A stretch of DNA of 45,466 bases, filler included, from Jimgerdemannia flammicorona (lineage: Eukaryota), in assembly GCA_003990765.1 (NCBI GenBank). It is 2 parts of 2 records of this genome, joined end to end, with 100 filler letters (N's around TTAATTAATTAA, not from the genome) between each part and the next. Parts side by side here need not be neighbours in the genome. Positions count along the whole stretch, not along the records: positions 1 to 22,684 come from RBNJ01001226.1; 1 more part is not named here. One strand, written 5' to 3'. A program made the translations under genes and the position numbers. Each line of letters begins with the position of its first letter. Position 1 is the stretch's first letter. The notes beneath the pieces were generated by a model, which saw nothing but the letters and a program-made list of their open reading frames with translations, was not told the origin of the DNA and did no database searches. This document shows, in pieces, positions 8,396-43,781 of this stretch.

Positions 8396-8536
8396 AGTCT
8401 GAATCAATAATATCAGTGCCAATATCTAAGTGATTAGTGTTCTAAATGAGTCAATTCAAATCAAATCCAGATTTGATTCATTACATAATGGTTTGACTCA
8501 AATTTTAATCTGAAACAATCCAAATCAACTTAGATT

Positions 8537-8830
8537 AATCTGAATCACTCTATCTAAATCACTTTATCTGAACTACTCCATCTGAACCACTCTATCCAAA
8601 TTACTCCATCTGAACTACTTAATCTGAATTACTTAATCTGAACCACTCAATCTGAATCACTCAATCCAAATTACTTAATCTGAATTATTCAATCTGAATT
8701 ATTTAATCCAAATCACTCAATCTGAATTACTCAATTCAAATTATTCAATCTGAATCATTCAATCCAAATTATCCTATTCAAATTATCTAATCCAAATCCA
8801 TCAATCTGAATCCTCCAATCTAAATCCTCT
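8537..8830. repeat. 14-bp minisatellite, 21 copies, consensus AATCTGAATYACTC
   Basis: Uninterrupted 14-nt periodicity from aatctgaatcactc (8537) to aatctaaatcctct (8817-8830), with no spacers. Confidence 0.92.
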
Positions 8831-8849
8831 ATATGACTCTTTATACTAG

Positions 8850-8907
8850 ACATATCTATATAAACATATATACATATATACAAACATACACATATACAAA
8901 TACATAC
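8850..8907. repeat. Degenerate (TA/CA)n microsatellite
   Basis: catatatacatatatacaaacatacacatatacaaatacatac lies immediately left of the LTR of element A. Confidence 0.75.
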
Positions 8908-9374
8908 TGTAACATAGCAGATACTTACTCTTGAAAGTATGTCAGATTTCTATATCTTGAAAACTTGACTGTTCTGACTCTCGCAGAGTCTCTTGAAGTT
9001 GCAGGGGAGAGTGGGTGAGTGTGAAGTATATCTGCCCACAGGCTTACAAGTTCCTTTGCTATCTCTTTGCTTTGAAATATTTTGATCTGAGGTTTATTCA
9101 CTCAAAGATACTGGGTTATTTATACAAGTTTGCTAGCTATGAGATAGTTACTGAGTTATGTAGCTAGGTTATGAGTCATTTAATACTTTACAAAATATTT
9201 TGCCAGTTGCAAAATGCTATACTATATTGAGAAGCTCGATCTCACACTTTGTGAAATATTTAGCAAGTGGTGAAATCAAGGACTACTAACTATGTGGCTA
9301 TACTACTTTGGGACTGGGTGTGATCAAGTATCTGTTCCCTATTTCCTTCTTCCAAATCTGGCTATACCATCACA
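8908..9374 (-). repeat. 3' LTR of element A
   Basis: Direct repeat of 15159-15625 with TGT...ACA ends. On the minus strand it has TATAAATA followed by AATAAA at ~9092-9124. Confidence 0.95.
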
Positions 9375-9879
9375 ACTTCCTCCTAAATAGATGATCTCAT
9401 CCTTAAAGTATCTATTCAAACTCCCAAGCTTCAATGGTCTGTATGGTCTTATATTGTGTGATTTGTTACATTACTGTTTCCCAATGGTGTCGCCTGACTC
9501 AATCGAAGTCTGAGGGAGTCACTCCTCACAGGTGGGCTAGTGCTGGTTCATCCTCTCAGAATAGCTTGTGGATTCTCTTAGCAATGGTGATCTGGGAATA
9601 GAAGAGCTAGTATTCTGTGATCCAATTTTCTTTGGTCATTTCTGGGTCTTGGTTGAGTACTTGGCCAAGTTTGAAGTACTCTTGAAATTTGTTTCAATGC
9701 TGATAGGCCTTGAAGTGTGAGATTTGAGAGAGATGAGTCTGTACAATGCTTTGGATACTATCATAAGACTTCTCTATGGTCAGAGGCTCGGTGGTACATA
9801 TACCATTGTCTCTTGATGGCTCTTTGGGCAGCGCTAGTGATCTTGAGTGCCATCGCAGTACTTCTGTTACTAGCCATGA

Positions 9880-10930
9880 TATTTCTTGAGTTAGTTTTGA
9901 TGAATGGTGGTGGAGATTATTGTGTCTGAGAGCTTTCATAGTCAGAAAGTAGTCCCTTTTATATCTTGCACCAGGTAAGGTCCTTTCCACTTGGGCTCCA
10001 GTTTTCGTGACCATGAAGCTTCTACCATATTCCAATATACTAGGACTTTGTCTCCTATCTTGATAATCTCTAAGGGTTTGTGGGTCTTTTCCACATTCCT
10101 CCATTGTAGTGTCTGTGCCTTGTTTATGTAATCCTCAGCCTTCTTTCTGATTTGATGTAGTCTCCATATTTCCATGTCTACATGTTTCCATATAGCATCT
10201 CCATTAGATGATAGGGTTCCCTGAGAACATTCTTCTCTGAATAGCATTTCTCGAGGAATAAAGTGGGTACTTTGTGATTGGATATCCTGGAGAGTGGATA
10301 ATGCTATTGGCAGATAGTGATCTCAGTTTTCATAGTTATCACAGATCTTGGCAATAATATTCTTGAGGGTCTTGTTGGTCCTTTCTGCTTGTCTGTTTCC
10401 TTAGGGGTGATAGGCTGTAGTCCAAATGTGCTGGATCTTATACTTCTTATAGAGAACCTCAAAGAGCTGATTCACAAATTCTGTTCCTCTATCTATAGTT
10501 ACTTATATTGGGGTCTTGAACTGGCAGATGATTTCCTTGTGGGAGAAATCAGTGATTGACTGTGCATTGGCTTCCTTGAGGGGTCCTGCTTCTATCCACT
10601 TTGTAAAAAGATCTATGATAACAATGATATATCAGTTACCAGTCAGGGTCAAGGGTAGAGAGCTGGTTACATCCATTGCTATGTGGGCAAATAGTACTGG
10701 TTCTATGCATACTGATCCTGGGGCCTGGTTTCATTGGTCTTGTTTCTGTTTCTGGCATTTGTCATAGGTTCTGATGAATTGTCTGATATCTTCTTCTATT
10801 CCAGGTCACCACATGGTTCTTCTTGCTTTGTCATATATATTTGTTCCTCCTTCATGGCCTTGTTCATGTACTTCTTTCATTACTTGATTCTTCCGGTATT
10901 TGGGGATGACTAATTGTTGTCCTTTCTTGA
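9880..10930 (-). pseudogene. pol: Integrase of element A (HHCC, catalytic core, GPY/F motif)
   Basis: VHEQGHEGG...KARRTMW, and IKIGDKVLVY...KLEPKWKGPYLV. Interrupted by stops. Confidence 0.9.
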
Positions 10931-11149
10931 GTATTTCTCCATCAGTTTTGAATTGTTTCCATGTCTGATTAATAATTGTTTTTGTCCATTCTTCCAGATG
11001 CGGGAGCATCTTTTACTACCCCAGGTAGCTGATGATTCCATAGTACAGCTCCCTATTTATGGTGATTTTGTGGGGGTGGGGTCCTTCGGGGTGTCTATGA
11101 GAGGGTGTTGGCATTGGCATTGGTTCTTCTGGGGCAGTGAGTAATTGTG

Positions 11150-12400
11150 GCATCATATGCTTACAGCTTCATGATTCATCGGTCATAGATTCCTTTGTAT
11201 TCACTGGTGGTGAGCAACTAGGTGAGTACTGAGTGGTCTGTCTGGATAGTAAAGTGTCTTTCCGCCAGGTAATAGTGGAACTTCTCTACAGCCCAGATGA
11301 CTACAAGATATTCTAGCTTGTATGACTCATAGGACTGCTCTGCTCCATGAGTACCTCAGCTGAGATAGGCTACTACATACTTGGTGCTATTCTTCTTCTG
11401 TGCAAGGACAGCTCCAAGTCCCATTGTACTGGTATCTGTCTGTAGAATAAATTCTCATATCCAGTCAGGTCTTCTCAAGATTGGAGCCTGGGTCAGTCTG
11501 ATATTGAGTTCATCGAAGGCTAGTTGCTGTTATTGTGTCCACTGGAACTTGACCTCTTTTCTGAACAGGTCATAGATAGGGCTGGCAATGTGAGAGAATC
11601 TTCAAATAAATCTCCTATAATAGGATGCTAGTCCCATGAAGGCTCAGGCTTCAGTGACACTGGTAGGTACCAGGTATACTACTACTGCCTTGATCTTTGT
11701 GGGATCTATATGTATTCCTTCATGGTTGATAATGTGTCTGAGGTATGCGATTTCTTCTTTTCCAAATTTGTATTTCTTGGGCTTAATGTAGAGGCCATTT
11801 TTGCGAAGCCTTCTGAGGATTTCCTCAATATGTTCTAAGTGCTCCTTGGCTGTTTGGCTGAAGATGATCACATCATCCACATATACCATCATCTATTTTT
11901 CCATAATATTCCTGAAGATGCTATTCATCATTTGCAGGAAGCTTGCTGGTGCATTGTATATTCCAAAGGGCATGCAGAGATAGATATAGGTTCTATCAGG
12001 AGTGATGAAGGCTGATCTTTTGCTGACTTCAGATGTAAGGCCAATTTGGTAGAATTCTGAGAACAGATCCAGAGTGGTGTAAAATCATGATTTATTCCCC
12101 AGCATGATAAGAATGTCATCAATATTGGGCAATAATTGTCTATCCTTCTCTGTGACCTCATTGGGTCTTCTATAGTCTGTGCAGAGTCTTGGTGCAAATT
12201 CTCCTGATCGGCTTCCTTTCTTTGGTGCAAGGACAATAGGTGAAGACCAAGGGCTGTTGGCTTCCTTAATGATACTGGATTCCTCCATTTCCTTGATTTC
12301 AGTCTTAAGCCATTCCCTGTATGCTGGCAGAATAGGATGGGCTTTTTGATAGATTGGTTTCACATCTCTAGTATTGACATCATGATAGTACAAGGGTTTC
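11150..12400 (-). pseudogene. pol: Reverse transcriptase and RNase H of element A
   Basis: NSPWSSPIVLAPKK, RLCTDYR, VYVDDVIIFS; RNase H TDTSTMGLGAVL and TDHSVL motifs. Confidence 0.92.
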
Positions 12401-12573
12401 TTAGTCTTGATGTCCTCGAAATCTGTGGCCAGTATATCTTCAAATATATGCAAGAGGTTCTGCAACTTCTTCCTAAGGGGAAAGTTCTTTCTGATTACAT
12501 AAGTGTGTTTGTCTTGGCTTTCCTCCTTCTTGTGCTCCAATTCTGTAATCTTGGTGCTGGCAAATACTCCTCT

Positions 12574-12990
12574 TCCTGTGGATCCAAATCCTTTCTTTCC
12601 TCTTTTCATTTCCTCTAGCTTCTTAACTTCTATGATCTTTGGTTGTAGGATCAGAAAGATCAACATTTGCACCAATCAGTCCTTCTTCTTGACTGGAAAT
12701 GGGATTGTAGGATTGTGATTCCTAGCAATGAGTAGAATTTCTCCAGTATAGTCTGAATCGATGACTCCTTCTTCAATTGTGATTTCACTTCTAGCCAGGC
12801 TGCTTCTTGTCTTGAGAATCCTGATATAATCCTTTAGGATGGTCATCTCCAGTCCAGTTGTGAGTAGGGTAGTTGTCTGGGGTTCCAGTACAGTCTCTTC
12901 TACTATAGCAATGTCTATTCCAGCTACATTTTCTGACTTGTATTCTGGCAAGACTGCATCAGGATAGATCTTTCAAATCTTGATCTTGAT
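12574..12990 (-). pseudogene. dut: Trimeric dUTPase domain of element A, between protease and RT
   Basis: All five dUTPase motifs in order: AGIDI, RSSLA, GVIDSDYTGEI, D*LVQML, RGKKGFGSTG. Two in-frame TGA stops. Confidence 0.93.
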
Positions 12991-13340
12991 TTCTTCTTCA
13001 TCATCACTATCCTCCAGGAGGGCTGGTGGTTTGTCATCTTCCTCATTCTCTTCTTTCCTGATCTGTTTTTCGAGAGCTTTCTGCTTCTTTTCTGGTGGAT
13101 CTTCTTGATTCTGATGGTACACTGGTAGCAATCATTGATATGCTCCATACAGTACATCTTGATCCCATGAGGACAGAATTCTTGTGGGATATAACCTTCT
13201 GCAATCTTCTTGCACTATTCTTCTTTACTTATCCATCCAACTTTCTTCTTCTTTGGAGTAGTCACCATATAAGCTTCCTCTTGCTCACTCTCTTCTTCCT
13301 CCATGTTGGGCAGGACTCCTTTGTTGACATTGATGGGAAT

Positions 13341-13680
13341 TCATATCTTCTGTCCCCGGTAGGTAATCTGCATCTTCTGGGCATTGAGATTGATTACTGC
13401 CTTGGCTTTGTGAAGCCATTGATCGCCGATGAGGATGTCATAGTTGGTGGTATTGGTTACAATTATATCTACTGGGATAGTTGCTCCTCCAATCTTGATG
13501 GGAACATCCCAGATCTTTCTCAGAGGTGTGGCTCTTGTGCCATCAGCTGTGATGAACACCAGTTTAGTTACTTCTTCCACATTCCAACCTAGGCAGTCCA
13601 CTGCCTTCTTGCTGAGGAGACATCCTCCTGCTTACATATCAATGATAACTTCAAAGATTCTATCTTCGATTTGGCATGTT
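13341..13680 (-). pseudogene. pol: Aspartic protease of element A
   Basis: VIIDM*AGG (decayed D[TS]G), ITADG, YDILIGDQWL. Confidence 0.88.
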
Positions 13681-13699
13681 GCATAAGCAGACATTTTGC

Positions 13700-15070
13700 G
13701 ATTGTTCTCACTTTCTTCTCCTGAGTCCTCTTGAATGTTATTGGCCTCAGTTATCTTCCATCCTTATTCCTTAGTTGTTTCGGCAAGTCCAAACCTCATT
13801 TGCTGTCTGAATATTGGGATTTCTACAAGCTGACCAAAGGTTACATTGACCTTTTGTTGACTGAGATCCTTGAAGATATCATACTTGAAGGTCTTGGTCT
13901 TGTGAAGCTTCTTTTCTTTTTCTCCTTCACTGGCTGGAGTGGTTCTTTGGATGATATCTTGAACTGCTTGCTCCAGCTCCATATCTTGGTCCATCTCTTC
14001 AGCTTGGCTTTCTGGGGCAGTTTCCATCTGCTTTTCCACTGGGTTCTTCTTGGGTCTTCCTGGCGGTCTCTTGTAGGGTTCTTTGTGAACATCCTTCTTG
14101 GTGGTCTGAGCAGGATAGGCCTCTCATTTCTCTTCATTGGATTCTCCGATTTCTTCAAAGATGATTATATTGACCTGCTCCTTGTTTCATGTAGCATTAC
14201 TTGGTTGAGCCTTATACTTGGTTTCGCTCATGCATTCATAGGAGTAGTGGCCTTCTTCTCTGCAAGTATAGTAGGTGCCTTTCTTCTTGTCTGAGGTGGT
14301 GGCAAACTTCTGGACAGGGTGGCAGTCTCTTCCTCTGATCTCCTTTACTACATCCCCCAAGTGGGCAGTCATTTCTGTGAACCTCCTGGTAAGTTCCTCT
14401 AAAGGGTCACTGTTCTTTTGCTGCTCTGTAGCTTTGGGCTGAGGTGTGTTTCAATTGATCATTATGGTTGGGATCATACTGGTTGACTTAGGTGCCTCGA
14501 TTCTGACTCCTGTAACTCTCTCCATTGTATGGTCTTGTGGGTGTCTGGCTATCCAGTATCGCTGAGCATAGGTGACCTTTTGTGGCAGATCCAGAATCAC
14601 TAGTGATGAGTGGATGGCCATGGCTATTTCTGGATAGACTCCTTTCATGAAGATTGCTTCAGCTACTTGATCTCAGATAGCAGTAGTATAATCTGCAAGG
14701 ATTATCTGATATCAAATTCTGGTATAGAATGTGTTTGGATCCTTACTCATTCCTTGGCATATTATATTGAGCTGATCCTTCAGGGCTTGCTTGATCTTAT
14801 CTGTATAATATGTATTTCGGAGCCAGGTCTTCTGTACTGTCAGTATAGTATTGGCATCATTTCCTATATAGGTTGCGGCTGTAAATGCTGCTCTGGCAGG
14901 ACCTCATAGGCTGAAGGGCATGAGGGCTACTTGCTGTACTGCTGTCAGGGTCCTTACAGCAGCATACTGCTCAAAATTGTCAATGAAGGTGATGATTGAT
15001 TCATCTGAGGTATATCCATGGAATACTGGTGGTCTCATATCCATCTTATCAGGGTATTGGGGCTCGGTTT
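13700..15070 (-). pseudogene. gag: Gag of element A
   Basis: Zinc knuckle YYTCREEGHYSYEC (decayed CX2CX4HX4C) at ~14230-14275, located between the PBS and the protease. Confidence 0.8.
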
Positions 15071-15158
15071 GTATGGTTGTTTGGGTAGTGGCAGTTATTC
15101 ATTGTTCAGCTTGAAAGTGAGGAATTCATCTTGAATCACCAGCCAATAGGCACCAAGT

Positions 15159-15625
15159 TGTAATGTAGCCAATGCTTACTCTTGAAAGTACATCAGATTT
15201 CTGTATCTTGAAAACTTGACTGTTCTGACTCTCACAGAGTCTCTTGAAGTTGTAGGGAAGAATGGGTGAGTTCGAAGTATATCTGTCTATAGGCTTATTA
15301 GTTCCTTTACTATCTCTTTGCTTTGAACTATTTCGATCTGAGGTTTATTCACTCGAAGATACTGGGTTATTTATATAAGTTTGCTAGCTATGAGATGATT
15401 ACTGAGTTATATGGCTAGGTTATGAGTTATTTAACACTTTGCAAAATATTTCACTAGTTGTAAAATGCTATACAATATTGAGAAGCTTGATCTCACACTT
15501 TGTGAAATATTTAGCAAGTGGCAAAATTGAGGACTGCTAACTATGTGGCTATACTACTTTGGGACTGGGTGTGATCAAGTGTCTGTTCCCTATTTTCTTC
15601 TTCCGAATCTGGCTATACCATTACA
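15159..15625 (-). repeat. 5' LTR of element A
   Basis: Direct repeat of 8908-9374, followed on the minus strand by a 3-nt spacer and a TGG-initiated PBS. Confidence 0.95.
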
Positions 15626-16166
15626 ATATATTGTGGCATTTGTTATGTATAATGAACTTTGACTGCACGGCTCAATGTGTGCCACTTCGTGAAGTGCACA
15701 ATATATAACAGAGTGCATTGGTGATGTTTGTGGGTCAAGGGTCACATGACGGGTTGTTCGATTCATGCGGTAATAATAGCGGGAGGTTGTTCAATGATGG
15801 CTCAATTGTTTAGTAGATAAGGGTGGCGATTATGCTGGCTAAGTTTCCTGGTGGCGATTAACTTGGCGGCAAACTCGAATTTATATGGCAACAGTCTTGA
15901 CGGTCTTGCTCTTTATGCGGTCAATTAAAGCGGTCCGTGGTGCAGTAGGTCGGGGAAAAACGGAGGTTGACGGCTCGCTCATCCATCTTGACTTATTAAC
16001 TTGAAAGGTTCCTGGTGGTCATTTGGGTCTTTGGCAGCGTTCTTGTTTTGCTGGGTATCCTTGGGTTCCTTAGGTCTTTTAGCTGTGGTGCCAGGGTCTT
16101 GAATCTTGAATGGCGGTCGAATTGCATGGTCCGAATGGCGGCTTTCCTTAGTGGTGGGTCTTGAAC

Positions 16167-16491
16167 GTTTTCTTTCTTTCCGTGGCAAGAGAAAATTCTT
16201 TAACTCAAACTTCCGAGCGATCCGTTGCTCTAGGTTGTTATCTTGTTCTCAGAATTTATCTGGTCTCTTGGAGGCAGTGGTTATTTCACAAAACCAGTTG
16301 ACTGACTTTGCAGGCAGTCCATGGTCTTGAATCCTTTTCAGGGCAGCGGTCTTGTAATGTTTTCTTTCTTTCTGTGGTAAGAGAAAATTCTTTAACTCAA
16401 ACCTCGAGTGATCGTTGCTCTAGTTATCTTGTTCTCAGAATTTATCTGGTCTCTTGGAGGCAGTGGTTATTTCTCAAAACCAGTTGACTGA
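16167..16491. repeat. Two ~135-bp direct repeats (16167-16305 and 16359-16491) inside the putative LTR of B
   Basis: Near-identical blocks gttttctttctttcYgtggYaagagaaaattctttaactcaaac...aaaccagttgactga. Confidence 0.9.
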
Positions 16492-16542
16492 GGTTTATTC
16501 ACTCTAAGAATATGGGTTATTTATACAAGTTTGCTAGCTATG
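16488..16542 (-). promoter_or_regulatory. LTR core: TATA box and polyadenylation signal
   Basis: Minus strand reads CATAGCTAGCAAACTTG-TATAAATA-18 nt-AATAAA-CCTCAG. 51/55 identical to 9087-9141 in the LTR of element A. Confidence 0.75.
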
Positions 16543-16651
16543 GGAGAGGGGGCATGACTAAGGCTAAGGTATACTATGTTGTGGCGAACTTATGCTATTG
16601 GTTTGCATGATGCGAAGTGCAGGCTATTGTTTACTACGGATTGGGTTGTAG

Positions 16652-16893
16652 GGGATAGCAACGCTGGATTCGGACTTGCTGACAAAACGCTAAAAATGGT
16701 GGCACTGGATAGCAATGCTGAAAACGGTTGTGCTGGGTAGCAATGCTGAATTCGGATGAGCTGACATGATATGATGATTTTTGCCAGAAATGGTTGTAGA
16801 GGGTGGTAATGCTGAATTCGGACCTGCTGACAAAATGCTGAAAATGGTGGTACTGGGTAGCAACGCTGGAAACGGACTTGCTGACAAAAGCTG
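16652..16893. repeat. Compound tandem repeats upstream of the TATA box (enhancer-like)
   Basis: Recurring gRtagcaaYgctg...cgga...gctgacaaaa modules, about 5 partial copies. Confidence 0.8.
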
Positions 16894-16919
16894 GGTTCTT
16901 ACGGCTGATGGGCGGTACT

Positions 16920-18056
16920 CTAGAGGAAATAGTACCCTTCATCTGTGGTGGGCAAATCTTGCTGGGTTGTGATTTCTTCTTCATCATATCTCTCCTCAAA
17001 GGGGGGAAGCGCCGGCCAAGAGGTGAGGGGGTAGAAAAGTGGCCAGTCATCTTCAACAACATTCTCCAACCCTTGAACAGCTTGAATGCGGACAGAGGAC
17101 TGGTAGACTCTCTGTTGCTCCTCTTCTTCCTCTGAAGGCTCATCAGTTTCAGTATCAGAGGGGTTTTCTTCAGGGGCAGGGTCTTGGAGTTCTTGGGCCT
17201 CCTCTTCAAAGACAGGAACTTCTTGGGCTTCTTCTTGATTCGGTTCCCAAATGATGAGGTGTGAATTGTGGCTGACAGGATGGTGGGTGGTTGGGGTAGC
17301 TCCAATGGGTGTCTCTATAGTGATGGGTGGTCCTTCAAATATCTCCATAAGACTCATTAAGTGACCTTGATGGTTGTCTCGGAGTGGGGTGGTGTGGAAA
17401 CCTGGCTGAGTGGGTTGGGTTTGTTGGCTTCCTACGGCGATGCGGTTGCTGCCAATAGCATTGGCTACTTCAGATTCTATCCAGTCAGCATCTTCAGTTG
17501 AAAGGTGGGAGAGGCTGCCAGCTGTTACTCCTTGTAAGTATGCTATAGCCCAGGGAATATGGCAGAAGATTTGATGGACACGGAGGGCTCTCTTGATTAG
17601 CCGGGTGGTGGTTAACATTTCGACAATGAGGTCTTCCTGGTCATCTTCTTGAGTTTCATTGCAGAGATGGTGTCTGATTTCATAGTCATGCCAGAGGGTC
17701 ATTCATTCGGTAGTGTCTTTGAGCTATTGAGTCATTATATACCGGTAGTTAATGAAGTGTCCAAGGTCCTCAGTATAGAAGTTCAAGTGTTCAGAAGTAT
17801 CTGGGCACCAGATGGCCTTCTTGATAGCTTCAAAGATCAGAGTCTTTGGGCCGGGCAAAGGGGTAGAGCGGCGGGAGGTCTGGTTGGATCGGTGGATGGG
17901 AGGCATTGTGTGGTGGGTACTTGGTTCTTTGGTGCTAATCCCTGAGGCAGAGTATGGTTCCTTAAATAATGTGGTCTTCATTTTGGCTCGGATCATCTTA
18001 TCTTCTTTTGGTGAAACCACTTGATGGATTGGGCTGGTCACCAGTTATCGCACCAT
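16920..18056 (-). pseudogene. 379-codon ORF of unknown function inside the putative LTR of B, with an acidic C-terminus
   Basis: ORFs 17724-18041 and 16920-17702 are in the same frame as an ATG at 18056. There are only three internal stops (TAA, TAG, TGA), each one transition away from a sense codon. Confidence 0.65.
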
Positions 18057-18459
18057 AATGTCGTCTGATCTTATGGTCACAGGGTACTCTGAATTTGGAC
18101 AGGGTCAATTGTAGATGTCACATCTGCCCCTTGCAAAATTAGAGCCATCCTCGGCGGTGAGGGTTATATAGAGTTGGGTGGTCTTAACTCCAGGGACAAG
18201 CAGAATGCTAGTGCATTTGTAAGGACTGGCCATCCTTGTCTAGGGCAAGGGCTCCCATAGTCACGGTTGGGGGTTCAAACCTATCGAAAATAGTATTACT
18301 TGTAATCCGAGGCAATCTCTTAGTAACAATGTCTGTCACGTGAATGGGCTTAAGTCTGGTTCCAATGTTGTTGGCTTTCTTGAGTTCCGAGTGAAACGTC
18401 CATCGTATCTCCAGCAGAGGCGACACAGACAGAGTGAACCGGATTGTTCAAATGCGTTT

Positions 18460-19560
18460 TGCTTCTCTTGAGTAGTAGAGTCTTATGCGGTTGCGATGTA
18501 TCTTGGTCTTGAGTATAACTCCATCCAAGGTCTTGAGTTGATAAGTGTGGTTCGAGAATACTTGGTGTATGAGATAGGGGCCTTTCTATTTTGGTTCAAG
18601 CTTGGCACTCCAATTTCCTTCTATGATGGTACGGTACACCAGAACCTTTTGCCCAATGAGCAGGGGTTCAAGGTCGGCTTTGCAGTCATAGTACTTCTTT
18701 TGGCGTTCTTGTGCCTTGGCGGTAAATCCTCATGCTTGCTGGCGTATGTTGTGTAACCAGGTGATCTCTTCTGTGACTCGTTTTGACAAATCTAGCTAGA
18801 CTGGTTCAGTAGGATCTTGTGCTTCTTGGCCATATACCAAATAGAAGGGGGTCTGTTGGGTAGCAGTTGCCTTAGAGGTACGGATGCTGAACAGAATTGC
18901 CGGTAGATAGATATCCCAGTTTAGTTGATCTCTGGTTCTACTGAGACCTCACTTGATAGTCTGGTTCATTCATTCAGTGAGTCCATTTATCTGTGGGTGG
19001 TAGGCTGTTGTTGGTCGTAGCTTGATCTTGAAGTTACTCGCAAAGGTCTTCATGGCTTGGTTGACGAATTCTCGGCCTTGGTCTGTAATGATTTCCTTGG
19101 GCACACCATGGCGGCTGAAAATTTCATCATACAGGATTCCAATAATTGTCTGGGCATCGGTAGTCTCAATGGCAAAGGCTTCAGGCCATTTTGTGAGGTG
19201 GTCTTCGATAGTGAGGATGTAGCGTCTTCCTTGGCTGGTTACTGATAGAGGTCCAATAATGTCTATTCCTAGTCTTTGAAAGGCTCCAGCTGGTGTTGTG
19301 ATCAGTATTAATGGTGCTCTGTCGGTAGGCTTTTGTCAGTATCTTTGGCAGGTATCACATTGTTGAATGTGTATTGAAATTTGTTTTCTCATCTTGGGCC
19401 ATCAGTATCGCTTCTTGATTCTTGCAATTGTGGCGCCAATTTCTTGGTGTGCATTTTGGTCATGATTTGTTGTCAGGATCTTCAATATTTCTTCTTCTCT
19501 TGGAACTCAGGTATACTGCTCTCCTTCTACTCTCCAAAGTTTGCCATCACCTTCTTGGAA
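18460..19560 (-). pseudogene. pol: Integrase of element B
   Basis: HDQNAH...CDTCQ, LGIDIIGPL, DHLTKWPEA, IITDQGREF, YHPQINGLTE, KGPY. Confidence 0.93.
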
Positions 19561-19715
19561 TTTCTTGAAATTCCTTTGGACAAACAACTTGTGGGCTGGT
19601 TGGATTCCTTTCTTGAAGCTTCTATGGTGCAGACTCCAGGTGAGGGCGAGGCGCAATTCTTGGTTCATTTGGGTGAGCGGGAAGCAGCCTTCTCTTGTGG
19701 GGGCTCCTTCCCTTC

Positions 19716-21060
19716 TTATTGGTTTCGCAGGATTCTTGACAGGGTATCAACATTGGAATTCTTAGCACCTTTCTTGTAGACAATAGTGAATTGATATTCT
19801 TGTAGAGACATGATCCATCTAGTGAAGATTCCTGAGGGCTCTGGCTTGTTAAACAACCATTGTAGAGCTTGGTGGTCAGTGATGAGAGCGAATCTCTTTC
19901 TCAAGAGATAGTGTTGGAAGTGATCCATGGCCCAAACTACAGCTAGGCATTCCAACTTAGTGGCCCCATAGTTCGCTTGGGTTTCATTTGTGGCCTTACT
20001 AGCATATTCGATAACATGCTCCCTCTTCTGGTCATCTTGCTGAGACAGAATTGATCCAAGTCCTAAGGCTGAGGCATCAGTTGCCAGGATGAATGGTTTG
20101 CCAAAGTCTGGTCGCACCAGGACAGGGGCTTTGGTAAGGGCCTTTTTGAGTAGCTCAAATGACTTTTGTTGTTCTTCTTTTCAGTAGAATGGTTGGTCCT
20201 TCTTGGAGATATCGTGGAGAGGTACTGCCTTATCTGAAAACTTTGGGATAAATCGTTGATAGTAGGATGCCAGCATAAGGAAAGATAGGGTCTCCTTTGC
20301 TGAGGTCGGGGTTGGGTAGTTCTTGACTTTCTCTACTTTGCGGAGGTCAGCATGTGTTCCTTGAGCTGAGACAACATATCCCAGATATTCAACTTGATGT
20401 TTTCCGAAGAAGCACTTCTTGGCGTTGAGTCTGAGTCCTGAATTTCGAATGGTATTGAATACTTCGCGGAGGTCTTGCAAATGTTGCTTGAATGTCTCAG
20501 AGTAGATGATTACATCATCTATGTACACTAGTACATTTCTTCCAATGAGATCCCGGTAGACATAGTTCATCATTCATTGGAATGAGGCAGGTGCATTGCA
20601 GAGTCCAAAGGGTATTCATAGGTATTCATACTGTCCTCATCTGGTGATGAAGGCCATCTTGCAGATATCTTCCTTGGCAATGGGTATTACTTGGAATCCT
20701 TGGAACTGGTCAGTAGTGGTCATATATTTGGCTTTTCCAAGGGCATTGATGAGGTCATCAATTCTTGACAGTGGGTAGGCATCTTCTGTGGTGACTTTGT
20801 TGAGTTTTCTGAAATCTACGACCAATCTCCATCCTCCTTTCTTTGGTACTATGATTGCTGGTGAAGCCCAGGGGCTTGATGATGGTCTAATGACTCCGTT
20901 TCATAGCATTTCGTCTATGTGTTGTTGTTCGAATTCAATCAGATGATGTGGTGTTCGGTAGGATCATTGTCAGATTGGTCTTGCATCTCCAGTATGTATA
21001 GGGTGTTCTCCGTATTGATATGGTGGGAAGTTATCATATGTGGTGGTAAATATATCTTTG
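19716..21060 (-). pseudogene. pol: Reverse transcriptase and RNase H of element B
   Basis: VVDFRKLN, DAYPL, VYIDDVIIYS; TDASALGLGSIL, ITDHQALQWL. Confidence 0.95.
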
Positions 21061-21562
21061 TACTCCTCTATCAACTCCTGTATCTGTTGTTGCTGGTCCT
21101 TGGTCAGAGTTGTCTCGATGTCGATGGCTTTGATTGCTGAATTTGCTGAGTCTTCCTCCCTAGTACCGTCAGTCTCACTGGAGAGGGCTTGCCGTTTCCC
21201 AAGAATTCGAAGACTTCTTCCTCGTAGGTGTCTATCAGTGGTTTGAAATATCCCAATGTTGTTTTGGGGATAGTTATCACTTCGAAACCCGAGTTTCTGA
21301 TAGGGATGTGGATCAGTGACATCTGGTCATGAATTCGTTCTTCAGCCAGGAGAATGTGGTATTCCTTTTGAAGCTTCAGTGATGGTGCAAATATCAAGTT
21401 GTTTGCTTCTACTGGTAGGTGCACATCTAGGCCTTTTTGCTGGTAGGGCTGTAGGAGGATGTCTTCTCTTGCTTGAATTGAGCAGCAGATATGGGGTCTC
21501 ATTTGTCGGAATTGAGCAACTGTTGCTAAATGAACCTCGATAGGTGGTGTCCGTAGATTTCT

Positions 21563-21974
21563 ATTGGTGCTTCCAAAGCCTCCTTGTCCTCTGTTAGTAT
21601 CTTCTAGTTGGTCTACCTCTTAAATGGTTGGCTGTGATGTCTTGATAAACAGGATTTGGCAGATGGCTTCCATAGGACTGAAGAATTGGCTGGTTCTACT
21701 AGAATTGCGGATAATGGCCTTCAAGGGACCTCGATAGTCCTGATTGATGACTCCTCCTTCTACTGTGACTCCTTTGGTTGCCCAAGAGGATCTTGAGGCC
21801 AATTGTCCATAATGCCCAGGTGGTATAGTGAGTGCAATCTGTAGGTCAAAGGTCCTGGTACTTCTGGGTCGGGTTCTTGCTTGGTAGGGGAGGCAGAGGT
21901 CATAACCAACTAATCCTTCAGTTTGTGCAAGAGGTGGCTGTGCCCAGGGTGAAAGCAGCTTGACCTGGATAATT
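21563..21974 (-). pseudogene. dut: Trimeric dUTPase domain of element B
   Basis: VGYDL, SRSSWA, GVINQDYRGPL, ICQIL, and after one TAA stop RGQGGFGST. Confidence 0.92.
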
Positions 21975-22684
21975 GGTTGAGCTTTGAGAAATGGCACTTC
22001 AGCTGTTGCCATTGTAGGTGAGAAGTCCATGCGCTCCAGTTTGAAGAAAGGCCAGTGAGCTCCTGTCTTTGAGTTTCTTGTGTAATTGAATCCAGTCTTT
22101 CCTAGAGGGTCCAGAGCTTCCATAAGGATGAAGGCAAGGTTGATACCTTCTTTTCCTTGATGAGGGTGGTAGTACCAGTGAATAATGGCCAGGACTTCCA
22201 ATGGTAGGTCCCAGATAGAGGTCTTGCTCTTGAACTTGCAATTTCCTTCATGGTTGATTTCTTTGTACTTCCGACAGGCCCAGTGAATTCGAGGTTCTTG
22301 CAGGGTGGGATCCTTTCTCTTGACTTGGCTCTTGTAGACATCTTCGCTGAGGTGAACATCTCGATGTTCACATCAGTAGCAGGTAAAGGTTTTTCTGCAA
22401 TCACAATGTCCCTTCTTGACAAAGTCTTCATTTTGCTGTTTGATCTCCCTGCTGGTAGGGAATCTCTTCCGATACTTGTCATAAGTGGGCTGTGTGATCT
22501 GGAGGGCCCGGGTGATAGTGTAAGAGCTGTTGCTTTCTCCTTCAATGGTAAGGGACTTGAATGTTGGTGGGCGAGGATCTTCTGTCCTTCCTTATAGGTC
22601 TTCTTGAAGGTCTTTGGGGTTGGAGGTTGTATTCGGCTGTGGGATGGTGCTTGCTTCAATTCATCCTTGTCATCAATTTCTGGC

Positions 22685-22784
22685 NNNNNNNNNNNNNNNN
22701 NNNNNNNNNNNNNNNNNNNNNNNNNNNNTTAATTAATTAANNNNNNNNNNNNNNNNNNNNNNNNNNNNNNNNNNNNNNNNNNNN
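22685..22784. other. Assembly spacer: N44-TTAATTAATTAA-N44
   Basis: Exactly 100 nt, symmetric, with a central 12-mer that has stops in all six frames. This is typical of artificial contig concatenation. Confidence 0.95.
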
Positions 22785-23470
22785 CATTCCAATTTCCACG
22801 CCTATACTCGACCATTTTTAACTATTTTTTTAGATCCTATTTCTCTATAATAGTAGCACAGTATGTATTTTCGTTAGTATATATCAAAAAAGTAGTATTC
22901 TGGCTTCAACTCTATAGAGAGTTTTTTTTAATTTTATTATATTTATAATAAGTAATATCTATTTGAAATATATATATGTTTTTTTTAATTGTTTTTTTGA
23001 CTTATATTTCTTAATGGTAGTATAATTTTTTTTTTAAAAAAATATTTATTAATCTAAATTATTTCTAACTTTAATCCTACATATAGAGAGTTTTATAAAA
23101 AAAAAATTATCAGCAGACTTTATGAGCTTTGTTTATTATAAGCCTCTTATTAATAGAGATTAAGTAGTGATAAGTCTCTGTTAATAAGGATTCAGTAATG
23201 ATAATGAGAATGTATCAGCTATGCTACTAAATTCTCATCAATGTAGGTATTATTAATAGAGGTGTTATCAATAGAGGCTTACCAATAAAGAATTTAGTTT
23301 AGTTCAGTCTATTAAACTTAAAAATTATTGATATATATCAAAATCTATCAATATTAAATATATATTCTCTCTTTTTTGCAATACCACCTATTCATACTTT
23401 AAATAAGATATGTAAAAATATAATCTTGTAATATATATCAGCTTATGGAACTATTTTAAATAGATACTAA

Positions 23471-25695: not shown

Positions 25696-25700
25696 GCTTA

Positions 25701-26164
25701 TATAATAGTTTCACAGTCATATTTAGTCTTAGTATATTTTTATATCTTTTAGTTAGTCTTTTCTTATCATTTCTTGAATATTCTACTATGTTCCACCATC
25801 TTCTACTTACTTAGAAACCTTCTCTCAGTACCCAGATACTACTAGAATATTTTTGTCTTTTCTTGGTATTAAGTATCTTGTCTTAGCTAGTCATAGAACC
25901 TTTTGGAACATTGTAGAATCATATTAGTCATCTTTGTCAAGAATCTATTTCTTGGTATTTCTCTTTCTTTCCAAGATTCTTTCAGATCTTTCTTTCAGAT
26001 CATATATAAATATCCTTGTTCTCTATCTGAATAAAGCTCAGAATATTTTCTCCTAGAAATTCTTCAAGAACACTTGAACCTTTAAGTATCTCTTCAAGCT
26101 ACTTTAGGCCAATTAGAACTTCCAGACTTAGCCACTTTCTCTTAAAGAAACTATAACTATTATA
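25701..26164 (+). repeat. 5' LTR of the chromovirus-like element
   Basis: Direct repeat of 31777-32240, with TATATAAATA at ~26003 and AATAAA at 26030. Confidence 0.95.
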
Positions 26165-26329
26165 CTTAGTAGTAGTAGTATTGTTATACCTTACCTTATT
26201 AAGAAACCTTATACAAATTTTAAAACCAGTCACAACTAGTCACATGAACTCAAAATAAGTTGCAAAGAGTCAGCCTATTAGTCAGACCTCTCTGAAGAAG
26301 CAGAAGAACCATAAGCTAGCATAGAGGAT

Positions 26330-27292
26330 ATGATTGCCACTATGGCTCACCAAATCTAAGCACTTCAAGTACAACTAAAACTGTAGAAAATAAGAACTGC
26401 AAGTATATTATACTCTACCATAATACCAGTTAGTTTCAAGCTACTCAAGCCAGATACCTTTGATAGTCACTAAGAAGGACTATCTATAGATACATAGACC
26501 TTCCAATTAGATCAATACTTCAAGCTCATAAGAATGAAAGAAAATATGTAAGTCCAATTTACTGCCACACTTCTTCAAGGAAATGTAGTTATTTGGTAGT
26601 ACAATCATATCATAACTATATCTATATACTCACATATATAAATCAAGAATTGGGAAGCTTTCAAGAGAGCCCTTCATAGGCAGTTCAAGCTTACTAATAC
26701 TATCAAACTAGCCAGAGATAAGCTAGTAAATATCAAGCAACTCAAGTCTATACAAATCTATAATATATAATTCCTATTAATCCTATTTGAACTATCAGTA
26801 ATAGCAGAGGATGAAAAGATAGACTACTATATCTAAGGTCTGAAAGGAAACACATGAGTCAAAGTTAAGCTAGAAGAGCTACAAAGCCTTAATGAAGCTA
26901 TGAGGATTACCAATTGGTTTGATATTATCACCTTTAGTAACCACTTTGAACCAGAATACTATAAGAAGAACCACTTCAAGAACTGCCACAGAAATCAATC
27001 AAGAATAGTTGGCCTAGCACTAATAGACTTAGACACCATAAATAAAAAGAACACCAAGCTCACCTCTGAAGAAAAGGACCACCTGAAGAAATCCAGAGCC
27101 TGTTTCTTTTGTTGCCAAATAGGATACATTGCAACCAAATATCCTAAGAAGACTAGTGAATCTTCTAGACCAGTTACTATATTGTCCAAAGACATACCTG
27201 TCAACTCTACTATCAGTCAACCCAAGCTTAAGATCAAGAAGCTTCACCCAAAGACCCAGGCCCCTCAATATCAAACAGAAAGAGTCACTTAA
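26330..27292 (+). pseudogene. gag: Gag of the chromovirus-like element
   Basis: KPDTFD, W..FKRAL..QF, ARDKL..IKQ and a decayed zinc knuckle ACFFCCQIGYIATKYP. Confidence 0.85.
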
Positions 27293-27379
27293 GAAGACAA
27301 TACATATCTTTATAGTAATGGTCTATTCTAAGAAATAAGACAAGAGACTATTAGTCAATGAAAGTATCAAGCTATTGTT

Positions 27380-29946
27380 AGAAGAATTCAAGAATGTCTT
27401 TCTAGATAAGCTATCTGGTCTACTGCCTATATGAGAAGTTGATCATAAAATTGAACTGACCCCAGGAGCTATACTACCCAAGAAATACATATACTATATA
27501 TCACCACTTGAAATTGAAGCAGTTAAGAAAAATCTAGAAGAACTACCTGCATAAGGAATCATCCAGCCAAGAAAATCTCCTTATAGCTCATCAGTCCTAT
27601 TTATCAAGAAGAAAAATAGTACTTTGCAAATGTGTATAGACTACTATATAATCAATAAGCTTACTGTCAAGAACCACTATCCATTATCTCTGATTGATCA
27701 AATCTTTGATGTTCTTAAGAATGCCAAGTACTTCACCAAGTTAGACCTTATGTCAGAATACTACCAGATCCAAATTAAGCCAGAAGATATCTCCAAGACT
27801 GCATTTATGACCCCCTTTGGACTTTACAAATTCCTGATCTTAGCATTTGGTCTCACCAATGTACCTGCCACATTCTAGACTCTGATGAATAAGATATTTA
27901 AGGACCAACTATTTATTTTTCTATTGGTATATCTTGATGATATTCTGATCTTTAGTATAACTAAAGTAGAATACCTCAAATACATTCAAATAGTCCTAGA
28001 GATCCTGCAAAAACACAAGCTTTACACCAAGCTCAAGAAGTGTGAATTCTTCAAGAAATAAGTCAAATATCTTGGCCATATTATCTCTGTATAAGAAATT
28101 CAAGTAGACCTATATAAGATAGAAGTAATTAAAGAATGGTCTATTCTGTTGAATCTTACAGAACTCCAATCCTTTCTTAGTCTAGCTGACTACTACTGCC
28201 ACTTTGTTAGAAACTTCTCTGGTATTGCCAAGCTACTGACTAACCTCATGAGGAAGGCTCTATACTCAGACCACTATGTACCCTACACCTGGGACCTCTT
28301 CTGTCAACAAGTTTTTTAAGAACTCAAGAACTATCTGACCTATACTCTAGTCCTGTATAATATAGATCAAGGTCTAAAATTCATGGTTACTACTGATGTG
28401 TCAAATTTTGCCATTGGAGTAGTCTTGTTACAAGATGATGGTAAAGGACACTGTTCTATTACTTTTGAGTCCCACAAGTTGGCCCTGGCTTAGCCACTTA
28501 TGAGAAGAAACTACTGACAATAATACATACACTAGACCACTGGTGATGCTATCTAGAAGGTGTTAAGTTTGATATCATTACTGACCATCTCCTCAAGTAT
28601 ATCAACACTCAACCTACTCTGTTATATCTATAAGTCAAGTGGAGTCTCAAGCTTCAAACCTTCAACACAATGATCATCTATAAGTCTGGTAAGACACTTA
28701 TAGTACCTGATGCCTTATCAAGATGCCCAGACCTCACCACAATCATATAGGTCACTTTGGTATCAGAATTCTTAGACCAAATTAGACAAGCTTATAAAGA
28801 AGATACAGTTGCTACTAGAGTTTTCTCAAACAAGCTCAAGGATATATATACTATTGAGAACAACCTAATATATCATCAAGACCAAGTCTACTTATCTGAA
28901 AACATGAATCTATATTATAAGATTTTATAAGAACACTATGCTCCTCTTACTAGTCATCTTGGAATCAAGAAGACTATTAAGATATCTAATGCCACTACTA
29001 TTAGCCAAGCATAGTCAAGGAAATCAAGAACTATATTGCTAGCTGTGATATATACCAGCACAATAAGTCTATCAACCAAGTACCAGCCAGTTTGCTACAA
29101 CCACTACCAATTTCCATCAAGAAATTCAAGTAAGTTACTATGGACTTTGTAACTCAACTATCATGAACTCAATCTGGTGCTGATGCTATCATAATATTTA
29201 TTGACCACCTGACTAAGACTATGGTTGCTGAACCAACCACTACTAATGTTACTGTACCTGAGATTATAAGAATTTTTTTTAAGTCCATCTTCCATCACTA
29301 TGGTCTACTATGAGTAATTATTAGTGATCATGACTCCAAGTTTACCAGTCACTTCTGGCAAACTCTCTTCAAGATCCTAAGAACCCAATTGGCTATATCT
29401 ATTGCCTTCTACCCACAAACTGATGGACAAACTGAGTATATGAATAGAACTTTAGAACAAATGCTTAGAAACTATATTTCTTATAAACAAGATAATTGGG
29501 ACCACTATCTGACTTATGCAGAGTTTTTATACAACAATGCTGTTCAATTATCTACTGGTCTTTTCCCTTTCTGGTTACTCTATGATCAAGATCCTGAGAC
29601 CCCTGCAAGTCTATTTTCTTTCAAGAAAAGCAGTCAAATACAAGTTTCTACCACCAAGAGCCTTATAGACAAAATGGATGAACTACTCAATATTACTACT
29701 ATAAATCTTCAGAAGGCTCAATAGCATCAAGCCAAGTATACTGATAAGAAATGCTGTGATATTACTTATACTATTGGAGATCAAGTTCTACTATTTACCA
29801 AGAACCTCAAGATACAATTTCAAGTCAACTACTCTTTGAACAAGTTCCAACCCAAGTATATTGAACCTTTTGAGATTACTGAACAAGTCTCCACATCCTC
29901 CTACTGCCTCAAGCTACCTGAAACCATAAGAGTACACTCAGTCTTT

Positions 29947-29949
<3 letters not shown>
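27380..29949 (+). pseudogene. pol: Pol (RT, RNase H, integrase) of the chromovirus-like element
   Basis: MCIDY, KTAFMTPFGLY, FGLTNVPATF, VYLDDILIFS, TDVSNFAIG, TMDFVTQL, FYPQTDGQTE. Many stops. Confidence 0.95.
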
Positions 29950-30017
<68 letters not shown>

Positions 30018-31191
30018 TTTTATGGACTTTATGTCTTGTGGATTTTTATTGGAAGGGAACCTAGACTATATAGGCCAAAACCCTCCCCTACCACCTATCA
30101 AGCACTGCCCCCCCCTATTAATCTAGGCTAACTATTGTCCAGCAGCTTAACCATGTCAGGCACAGTAGGATAAAGTAGCCTGTATCTCATTCTGTACACT
30201 ATGCTCTCCCTACTACTAGGGGAAACCCAGCCATATACCAACAACTGAAAGTGCATGCCCAAGAACCCAACATATGTACAAGGCCATGCTCAAGCCGAAT
30301 AGAATAGCCCCTGCCACCCCAAAGAGAATGACAGGCAAAGAAAAAACTCTCATCAAAGTACAACATAGTGGATAGAGCCTGGTTCTCCCAGTTGAGGTGA
30401 GTAGAGGACTTATACATGAGGCAGGAGGAGACCCCCAATATCCCACTACTCAAGTCTGCAGGCCTCGATCATGTTGCTATATCAGCTCCCGATTCCAGTT
30501 GAGTACAGTCAAGATGTCTGAAATGAGTAACCTCAGGCCCCCCGACCCCCCCAGATGACCAAGGCCCAACCCCACAAATCACCAAAAGAAGCTGAGAGTG
30601 ACACCTACCACCTAACTACACTGCACCAAACAAAAGGCCCCACTGAAGCAGCACCTGCCCCAGCCCTGATGACCACCCCCAGCCTGGTACCCTACTGGTA
30701 TACTGTTATTACCCTTTCTCCTATCTGTGATGGCCATCTCCCCTCCCATCCTGACAACACCCGAAAAGTAGTTACCTATGCCAGAACCATGCTTGCCGAA
30801 AAGCTTGCCAAAGCCAGAGGGCCCCATCACAGGTACTGAGGACCTACAGGTAATCTATACTAAGCACTTGATGCCCAAGGTCGGCCAACTCCCTATGTAG
30901 CCCAAGACACACTGAGACACTACCTTGTTGGCAACAGCAAAAGAAAGAAAATGCTGCACCAAAATGGATACACTCCAGATGTAGCTGAAGGCACTAGAAA
31001 CCATGAAAAAGTGGAGAAGACACTGATCCGACACTGATAAAGAGGCAACTCATCACTATTGCCTCTCTCCCGCTATGCCCATGCAGGCACAGCAAACCAA
31101 CCCAAGGGTAATAATAGGGGAACAGGAACTTGGAAGGTTGCCTACCAAACCTTGTGACCAGTAAGGTAGCAGAGAAAGGGGTATCTGTCTT
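29950..31191 (-). mobile_element. 5'-truncated non-LTR retrotransposon of a second family (probable RNase H and CCHC remnants), inserted antisense into the integrase
   Basis: Long poly(T) at ~29950-30016 and an 18-bp TSD gtacact(c/t)agtctttcat at 29932-29949 and 31192-31209. One frame gives AITDRRK...LRLLISDILTVL...T*VVGYWG, resembling RNase H motifs (the RNase H call is weaker than the element call). Confidence 0.85.
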
Positions 31192-31299
31192 GTACACTTA
31201 GTCTTTCATATATCACACCTCAAGACCTAGAACCAGTCACCATCCTATCTTGGTTGAATTTCTAAGCCATCTGTCCCTATAATTATTGAAGACTATATT

Positions 31300-31467
31300 G
31301 AGTATAAAGCTGAGAAAATTCTTGACAAACAAATCCACTACCACCATCCTGAATACCTAGTCAAGTAGATGGGCTATCCTGAATATGATACTATCTGGGA
31401 ACTACTGGTCAACCTTAAGAACTCTTAAGATCTAGTTCAAGACTTTGAGACAAAATATATTGTCTAA
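31300..31467 (+). pseudogene. Integrase C-terminal chromodomain
   Basis: EYKAEKILDKQIHYHHPEYLVK*MGYPEYDTIWELLVNLKNS*DLVQDFE matches the chromodomain pattern Y.VE.I...EYLVKW.GY....TWEP..NL. Confidence 0.9.
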
Positions 31468-31776
31468 TCTCTATAGTGACTTTCTTGAATTGTCAATGAC
31501 CTATAGTAATGACCAGTATCTTATACATTGGAAGTTTACTTTGGGACTCCAGAACTAACAGAATATTTAATGAACAAGAAGTCTACTGAAATGAAGCTAC
31601 TAGCTAGGTTCAAACTCCTCCAGTTGATTAGTCTGGTAATAGGCCCTCTGCCCTATACAAAGATGATCAATCTCTATCAATATACTGATACAAGTTTGAG
31701 AAATTTTGGTTAAGTATATCTAGCCTTGTATTACCTAAGAACTCAATAAGGATGTTGGTTCTTAAGGAGAGAGGGA

Positions 31777-32240
31777 TATAATAGTTTCACAGTCATATTT
31801 AGTCTTAGTATATTTTCATGTCTTTTAGTTAGTCTTTTCTTGTTATTTCTTGAATATTCTACTATATTCCACTACCTTTTACTTATTTAGAAACCTTCTC
31901 TCAGTACCCAGACATTACTAGAACATTTTTGTCTTTCTTTGATACTAAGCATCTTGTCTTAGCTAATCATAGAACCTTTTAAAACATTATAGAACCATAT
32001 TAGTCATCTTTGCTAAGAATCTATTTCTTGGTATTTCTCTTTCTTTTCAAGATTCTTCTGGATCTTTCTTTCAGATTATATATAAATATTCTTGTTCTCT
32101 ACCTAAATAAAGCTTAGAATATTTTCTCCCAGAAATCCTTCAAGAATACTTGAACCTTTAAGTATCTCTTTGAGCTACTTTAGGCCAACTAGAACTTCCA
32201 GACTTAGCTACTTCCTCTTAAAGAAACTAGAACTCTTATA
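31777..32240 (+). repeat. 3' LTR of the chromovirus-like element
   Basis: Direct repeat of 25701-26164, preceded by the PPT and followed by the TSD. Confidence 0.95.
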
Positions 32241-33847: not shown

Positions 33848-34332
33848 GTGGAGGAGGAGAGCCTAGCAGGAGCCAGAGGAGTAAACCTAAAACCAGTATC
33901 AAAACAAACAGAAGATATGTAGAAGAGCATGTATAAGGGGGACAAATAAAGAATATAACTGAATTTGCATCAGCTGTTTATTGCTATATAAAAATGTAAT
34001 CCTTATATACAAAATATGATATTCCAAAAGGAAGGATGTACTACAACTTGGGGTGAACCAAATTAGGAACCACATGATTACTGGAGATAAGCAGAGATAA
34101 AGAGGGAGCCAATCCTAGTTGCAGAATAAAAATCACAAACAAATACAAACAAAACAAATCTAAATTGAGATTAAAAAATATCTGTAGACTCTGGAGGGGT
34201 GAGCATGAGCAAGGGGTGAGACTGAAATGGAGCAAGCCATAGTGAGTCTAAAGATAGTGGAGGGGAGCAGAGTAAGACCAAGACCCCAGAGCAAGTACAA
34301 GACCCCAGAGAGGGCAAGGATGTTTTTTAATC
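33848..34332 (-). repeat. 3' pseudo-LTR plus tail of the Penelope-like element
   Basis: Direct repeat of 43281-43781. It includes a copy of the first ~27 codons of ORF1. Confidence 0.9.
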
Positions 34333-39454: not shown

Positions 39455-39587
39455 ATTGAAAAATATTTACAGCTGCTGTCCCAACCTAGTACTCTATGCT
39501 CATCTCATCTCCAGTCAGATCCAAGTGCCTCTCTGCTTCCAAGTCACCCTCCACAACAGCCTGAGCATCTAATGCCTCCAAGATCTC

Positions 39588-43362: not shown

Positions 43363-43781
43363 GTATAAGGGAGATGAATAAAGAATATAACTGAATTTGC
43401 ATCAGCCATTTATTGCTATGTAAAAATGTGGTCCTTATATACAAAATACAATATTCCAAAAGAGAGGACATACCACAACTTGGGGCAAATCAAATTAGGA
43501 ACCATATGACCATCAGAGATAGGTGGAGATAAAGAGAGAGTCAATCCTAGTTACAGAATAAAAATCACAAACAAACACAAACAAAATAAATCCAAATCGA
43601 GATTAAAAAACATCCACAGACCCCAGAGGGGTAAGTATGAGTGAGGGGTGAGGCCAAAACAGAGCAAGCTGCAGTGAGCCTAAGTAAAGCAAGGGGCTGA
43701 AGGTAGTGGAGAAGAGCAGAGTAAGGCTGAGACCCCAGAGTAAGCATGAGACCCCAGAGGGGACAAGAATGTTTTTTAATC
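43281..43781 (-). repeat. 5' pseudo-LTR of the Penelope-like element
   Basis: Direct repeat of 33848-34332. Confidence 0.9.

Follow-up and report, generated by a model that had tools for sequence, protein, structure and literature searches.

It is still unsettled for what purpose retroelements encode dUTPases, and by what means these are brought to the reverse-transcription complex. Both questions bear on a stretch of 45,466 nucleotides of the Jimgerdemannia flammicorona genome (assembly GCA_003990765.1; two contig parts joined end to end and hereafter called the window), in which a Cys/His-bearing segment precedes the dUTPase of two Gypsy-type elements. It is considered here whether this segment, the module, constitutes a genuine protein domain, where it is placed in the coding plan of the elements, and what it may contribute to them.

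Two copies of the module in the window

The module occurs in a minus-strand element (B) and a plus-strand element (C), and the readings quoted for both in the first-pass annotation are present in the sequence on these strands. The minus-strand frame of B that starts at 22684 reads TYDKYRKRFPTSREIK...HCDCRKTFTCY*CEHRDVHLSEDV...SIWDLPLEVLAIIHWYY...LMEALDPLGKTGFNYTRNSKTGAHWPFFKL, and continues into the dUTPase without a change of frame. The module copy itself spans positions 21950-22591 (amino acids 32-245 of this frame), and includes a Cys/His cluster of the form C-D-C-x5-C-x2-C-x-H-x3-H (22352-22405) which is interrupted by the single in-frame stop of the B module, a helix segment, SIWDLPLEVLAIIHWYY (22169-22219), and an EALDP..G.NY..WP block (22049-22120). 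These are followed by the dUTPase in the same frame (21566-21934; Pfam PF00692, E 5e-26; amino acids 251-373 of the frame) and a conserved beta-rich domain (21203-21560), all on the minus strand. Copy B represents only the C-terminal two thirds of the module, as the upstream part was lost in the gap at 22686-22785, an artificial contig join made of two runs of N around a TTAATTAATTAA linker, which removes the 5' part of the element. The sequence to the right of this gap is unrelated and AT-rich.

Copy C (44251-45075, plus strand) is 5'-truncated and contains many stops, including seven in the stretch 44641-45060. From its start at approximately 44251 it includes a W-DDP motif together with an additional Cys/His cluster (cluster 1) ahead of the one retained in B. 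An indel has put its dUTPase (45089-45454, plus strand), which reaches the end of the window, out of frame with the module. The module is thus encoded in the dUTPase frame in B, as read earlier, but not in C, and the extent originally given to it in B, 22020-22480, falls short of its full length.

With in-frame stops treated as X, BLASTP aligned B (22021-22483) with C (44641-45060) at 47 identical residues out of 150 (31%; E 3e-17). At the nucleotide level the two are only 50% identical over 132 aligned codons, with identities of 0.49, 0.59 and 0.41 at the three codon positions, the third being the lowest. Synonymous sites are saturated over these codons (pS 0.73), while replacement sites are not (pN 0.43), and the likeness thus lies at the protein level, as was expected from shared motifs in the face of little DNA similarity. 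B and C are decayed copies of Gypsy-type retrotransposons, and the protein domain that they have in common is genuine and has been conserved by selection.

Relatives, position and coding context

An exhaustive HMMER pass with the B module against 1,835,955,588 representative proteins returned one match at E <=0.001, namely P0001 (E 4.9e-4), a protein of 1179 amino acids encoded in a single open frame. In P0001, Gag, which contains CYKCGKQGHISRNC, is followed in order by a protease (PF13975), an extended acidic stretch, the W-DDP motif, Cys/His cluster 1, a Pro/acidic linker, Y-x-x-DGYR, cluster 2, the helix, KAIDPVGLRGVNYTRD...WP, the dUTPase and a further domain. When compared with the window by tblastn, P0001 matched B at 22495-21203 (E 5e-45) and C at 44251-45075 (E 1.6e-22), the latter including cluster 1. 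A further relative, the metagenome locus L006, is 57% identical to C (E 2.7e-56), matches B at E 3.2e-20, and has a 282-aa frame, free of stops and open at the contig end, which covers the module and extends into the N-terminal portion of the dUTPase. This was the sole relative among the 85 loci detected in metagenome contigs using the degenerate DNA motif A-[LI]-D-P-x-G-x-x-G-x-N-Y. The same motif yielded no loci in viral contigs, and 48 loci without a single relative in prokaryotic genomes, one 30-bit match (E 0.01) among the latter being taken as chance. Furthermore, none of the 590 matches from an alignment-pattern scan for the module in metagenome contigs could be confirmed, word-indexed protein searches recovered no module carrier besides P0001, and the ESM Atlas provided no usable match to the module. 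Protein searches with the dUTPase part added P0002 and P0003, the latter a Gag-PR-dUTPase protein of Geosiphon pyriformis, both of which are devoid of the ALDP..WP block. Contigs with 95-97% identity to B are present in soil-metagenome runs (shares of at most 0.17; no RNA run among those listed). The family is known from four members, B, C, P0001 and L006, two of which (B and C) are pseudogenes, and the module, which has almost no relatives in public databases, is best read as specific to what appears to be a rare Ty3/Gypsy lineage. With one relative among 1.84 billion representative proteins, it may be put forward as a candidate new domain family for curation.

Two Gypsy elements, A and B, were distinguished by a three-frame Pfam scan of the minus strand at 8500-22684. 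Element A encodes Gag with a CCHC-type knuckle, an RVP_2 protease, a short linker, dUTPase, RVT_1, RT_RNaseH, Integrase_H2C2 and rve, and has a pair of LTRs (8908-9207 and 15159-15458; 89% identical). In element B the module is followed by dUTPase, RVT_1, RT_RNaseH, Integrase_H2C2 and rve. The PR-dUTPase-RT-RNase H-integrase order of Ty3/Gypsy elements can be seen in full in A, and from the dUTPase onwards in B. Both B and C are cut at one end, which leaves them with neither a visible LTR pair nor a protease within the window, and neither Gag nor protease was found upstream of ~44250 in the 5'-truncated C. Read from the two more intact relatives, P0001 and L006, the full order of the family is Gag (CCHC), protease, acidic stretch, cluster 1, cluster 2 with the basic linker, helix, A-[LI]-D-P..G.NY..WP, dUTPase and beta-rich domain. 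As the dUTPase is placed after the protease in both P0001 and element A, the module likewise comes after the protease and does not form part of Gag. It is positioned between protease and dUTPase and matched no described domain, which agrees with its earlier designation as a domain beyond the standard Gag/PR/RT/RH/IN set.

In element A, the short linker between protease and dUTPase has just one Cys/His cluster, along with a strongly basic stretch (13095-13175, minus strand), and no ALDP..WP block. It was considered as a short form of the module and rejected, with a non-significant profile match (i-E 5.8) that does not support homology. In tblastn, P0001 matched element A over Gag-PR and the dUTPase only.

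In both B and L006, the frame encoding the module and dUTPase ends ~20-35 codons past a GGGAAAC heptamer (21194-21200, minus strand, in B; 1125-1131, minus strand, in L006), which is in X_XXY_YYZ phase in both and at which the RT frame, -1 relative to the first, takes over. P0001 has the end of its frame at the corresponding position. The heptamer forms part of a 12-nt block, GGGAAACGGCAA, in which B and L006 do not differ, although their surroundings are approximately half identical. It is likely to direct a programmed -1 frameshift from the Gag-PR-module-dUTPase frame into that of RT-RH-IN, with no support for a downstream RNA hairpin obtained by simple folding without pseudoknots (z -0.54 and +1.11). 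Being encoded together with Gag upstream of this putative frameshift, the module and dUTPase would be made in larger amounts than the RT.

Several other features occur in the window. A fourth Gypsy element (25700-32075, plus strand), with LTRs at 25700-25999 and 31776-32075 (91%), encodes a Ty3-type capsid, RT, RNase H, SH3_Tf2-1 and a chromodomain, and contains neither a dUTPase nor the module. A tandem array with a 14-nt period (8509-8830) adjoins the LTR of element A. The 5 kb stretch at 36000-41000 is characterised by a GC content of ~0.5, a strong negative GC skew (-0.40 to -0.55) and long Pro/Ser-rich pseudo-frames with no Pfam match. It is enclosed by a direct repeat (33853-34152 and 43285-43584; 300 nt, 84% identical, 9.4 kb apart), which ends just upstream of the truncated copy C and may represent the LTRs of another large element. 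The other ORFs in the window had no Pfam match, and no host gene was recognised among them.

Conservation and identity of the module

Alignment of the four members revealed the following invariant residues (L006 numbering): Y33, E45, F53, C59, C67, C70, S78, D80, K87, Q94, L113, I121, N135, A139, D141, P142, G147, N149, Y150, W160 and P161. Conservation is strongest in the Cys cluster and over the ALDP..NY..WP block, in which A, D, P, G, N, Y, W and P are invariant, and not in the helix, where a Leu and an Ile are retained throughout. Ratios of dN/dS from Nei-Gojobori counts, which are rough as the synonymous sites are near saturation, were 0.19 for the module (157 codons; pS 0.67, pN 0.255) and 0.37 for the dUTPase (116 codons) in the comparison of C with L006, and 0.17 (159 codons) and 0.26 (147 codons), respectively, in that of B with L006. 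The constraint on the module is no weaker than that on the adjoining dUTPase, and the purifying selection postulated for it in the first-pass annotation is borne out by these ratios. Of the 99 differences between the soil contigs and B, 40 are listed, and among these 19 are located in the module, with 10 of the 19 being synonymous against an expected 33.5% (binomial p 0.07), a weak synonymous excess among these close copies. Differences between B and the near-identical soil contigs are mostly transitions, and the window copy looks to have decayed by transitions of the C-to-T type. Across 21200-22680, A/T in the window opposite G/C in the contig is ~3x commoner than the reverse (39 vs 13 in run X1).

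The Cys/His clusters have a spacing of about C-x-[C/H]-x(5-12)-C-x2-C in the four-member alignment, with P0001 showing C-x-H-x12-C-x2-C in cluster 1 and C-x-C-x14-C-x2-C in cluster 2. All four members retain the three invariant Cys and have either Cys or His two residues past C59, which makes the label 'Zn-finger' a reasonable one for a segment that would be expected to bind zinc. Cluster 2 and its linker have a pI of 9.0-10.1 and a net charge of +4 to +11 across the four members, P0001 being weakly basic (net +4). In L006, B and C, cluster 2 is succeeded by runs rich in Lys/Arg, which P0001 does not conserve. The retroviral CCHC knuckle has the spacing C-x2-C-x4-H-x4-C. The module was rejected as a knuckle of this type on the basis of its different Cys spacing and the lack of a zf-CCHC profile match, and the true Gag knuckle is found elsewhere than the module in P0001 and element A. 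The SWIM signature, C-x-C-x(n)-C-x-H, fits B as a bare pattern, while L006 and C have a His at the second place, P0001 is without the final C-x-H, and no Pfam SWIM match is listed, such that this likeness would appear to be a resemblance only. An origin of the two clusters by internal duplication was likewise rejected (score 26 vs a shuffle mean of 25.5; not significant).

Pfam hmmscan of the four members with an E limit of 10, within which the HMMER filters nevertheless drop most matches above E ~0.1, identified no family above the cut-off. Sub-cut-off matches to SH3_retrovirus (E 0.023) and zf-ChsH2 (E 0.076) were restricted to one member each, and B and C with stops as X matched the dUTPase only. 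A PDB sequence search with B gave no matches, and those of a PDB profile search, two U2AF23 chains at E 0.23-0.36, were attributed to chance. AlphaFold2 modelled the P0001 module, with three alignment rows, at a pLDDT of 31.3, and that of L006, modelled together with its downstream domains on seven rows, at below 50. The L006 model contains a confident dUTPase core from residue 187 onwards, with no confident contribution from the module, and residues 188-308 align with human dUTPase 24ok_A (Z 18.1, rmsd 2.9, 120 aligned). The beta-rich domain after the dUTPase is common to B, L006, P0001 and P0003 (residues 343-430 of frame 1071-2450, minus strand, in L006; pLDDT 60-84) and had generic beta-sandwich fold matches only, the best at Z 5.2, on which grounds its interpretation as a second, degenerate dUTPase was dropped. 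No description of the module was found in the full-text literature searched. The type of element and the position of the dUTPase are already known, while the module itself is, to judge from Pfam searches without a match above the cut-off and PDB sequence searches that were empty or at chance level, an orphan domain.

The proposed F-box identity fared less well. As an F-box-like adaptor, the module would use the helix 'DLPLEVLAII' to bind host Skp1 and recruit an SCF ubiquitin ligase, in counter-defence or another host interaction, a proposal which draws on the local pattern L-P-x-E-[IV]-L-x-x-I in B and P0001 and on two short helices predicted with low confidence at this segment. F-boxes are three-helix folds of ~40-50 residues, in which helix 1 begins with a conserved Leu-Pro. 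The Leu is invariant in the four-member alignment, but the Pro occurs only in B and P0001, with a G in L006, which has no stop in its module, and an R in C. Moreover, none of the four members matched an F-box family (PF00646, PF12937), or any other family over this segment, at E up to 10, and none was matched in the scans of B and C, while the strongest conservation is found in the Cys cluster and ALDP..NY..WP block instead of the helix. The likeness is confined to a short L-P-x-E-hydrophobic pattern in two of the four members, and this identity was given up as highly improbable.

Possible function and its meaning

The best explanation overall, to which a probability of roughly 0.45 can be attached, is that the module is a zinc-binding, basic, nucleic-acid-binding accessory domain which tethers the dUTPase. 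The first frame encodes Gag, protease, module, dUTPase and the beta domain, before a probable -1 frameshift leads into RT-RH-IN, and in the module one or two Cys/His clusters are combined with a basic linker, a helical segment, and the invariant A-[LI]-D-P..G.NY..WP block abutting the dUTPase. The clusters would most likely bind zinc and, together with the basic linker, would associate with either nucleic acid or the particle's nucleoprotein core. The dUTPase would thereby be kept beside the reverse-transcription complex, where it would lower dUTP and limit the incorporation of uracil in new cDNA. Several observations count against this explanation. The Cys spacing differs from that of retroviral CCHC and no zinc-finger family was matched, zf-ChsH2 being the best in a single member (E 0.076), neither the fold nor a metal site is visible at the pLDDT values of 31 and <50 obtained over the module, and only four members, two of them pseudogenes, are available. 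Furthermore, the basic linker could equally constitute a nuclear-localisation signal. Were this the case, the module may serve in nuclear import or host-factor docking, with its C-terminal block binding a host protein. The Lys/Arg-rich runs, present past cluster 2 in three members (L006, B and C) as well as in the linker of element A, are compatible with such a role, but the failure of P0001 to conserve the basic run makes it unlikely. It is also doubtful, to a similar degree, that the module represents an undescribed zinc-binding family which uses the conserved helix and the ALDP..NY..WP block for docking to a protein of the host, for instance a restriction factor, an import factor or an adaptor of a ubiquitin ligase. 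If so, the element would carry a host-interaction or counter-defence domain at Gag-level abundance beside its dUTPase.

A structural or regulatory spacer, which controls protease activation or polyprotein assembly and in which the clusters merely stabilise the fold, is a possible alternative that can be entertained tentatively. The module is located directly past the protease and acidic stretch, its encoding upstream of the frameshift would provide it at Gag-level abundance, and the Ty3 J domain, as described in the passages cited, occupies the same place (PMC11381356). However, nothing links the module to the protease, and its strongest conservation abuts the dUTPase. This proximity, in the same frame, could also mean that the module has no separate function and is an N-terminal extension of the dUTPase, or that the likeness is a product of chance or composition. 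Such an outcome is very unlikely given that copies whose synonymous sites are saturated still match one another at E values of 3e-17 to 2.7e-56, that the module makes no confident addition to the dUTPase core in the AlphaFold2 model of L006, and that element A and P0003 have the same type of dUTPase but lack the ALDP..WP block.

The tethering of a dUTPase by a nucleic-acid-binding domain, as favoured here, can be set beside several known systems. Fungal Gypsy elements, including PosPlaTy3-5 of Postia placenta and elements of Phanerochaete and Tuber, belong to Ty3/Gypsy and encode a dUTPase, whose role is termed 'unclear', in the interval from PR to RT, and, compared by description, no Cys/His module upstream of the dUTPase is mentioned in the portions cited (PMC2864245). 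The bdelloid rotifer LTR retrotransposons Juno, Vesta and TelKA are described as having a dUTPase between PR and RT, which in Juno is 'followed by an extra Zn knuckle' (PMC5408684). By this description Juno shares a Zn knuckle beside a PR-RT dUTPase, but its knuckle comes after the enzyme, whereas a larger module (~150-270 aa) with other Cys spacing comes before it here. In the betaretrovirus MPMV (Mason-Pfizer monkey virus), according to the sections cited, a fusion protein that binds oligonucleotide consists of the NC zinc-finger domain followed by a trimeric dUTPase, and is encoded ahead of a -1 frameshift into pol (PMC1802613). The MPMV fingers are, however, the CCHC nucleocapsid of Gag itself, while in the present family the protease separates the Gag CCHC from the dUTPase and an unclassified Cys/His domain is found instead, so that the likeness would be one of analogy and not of membership. 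Finally, Ty3 is described as having a junction (J) domain of little understood role between PR and RT (PMC11381356), which by this account is comparable as an extra polypeptide in the PR-RT interval, although Ty3 is without a dUTPase, unlike the elements considered here.

The practical weight of these observations is limited, as the copies in the window are dead and the function is one that we infer. If the favoured explanation is true, the module would represent a third pairing of a zinc-finger-like domain with a dUTPase, after the betaretroviral NC-dUTPase and Juno, and one achieved via an unrelated orphan domain. Such a repeated pairing would suggest that the combination is functional and has arisen repeatedly among retroelements.
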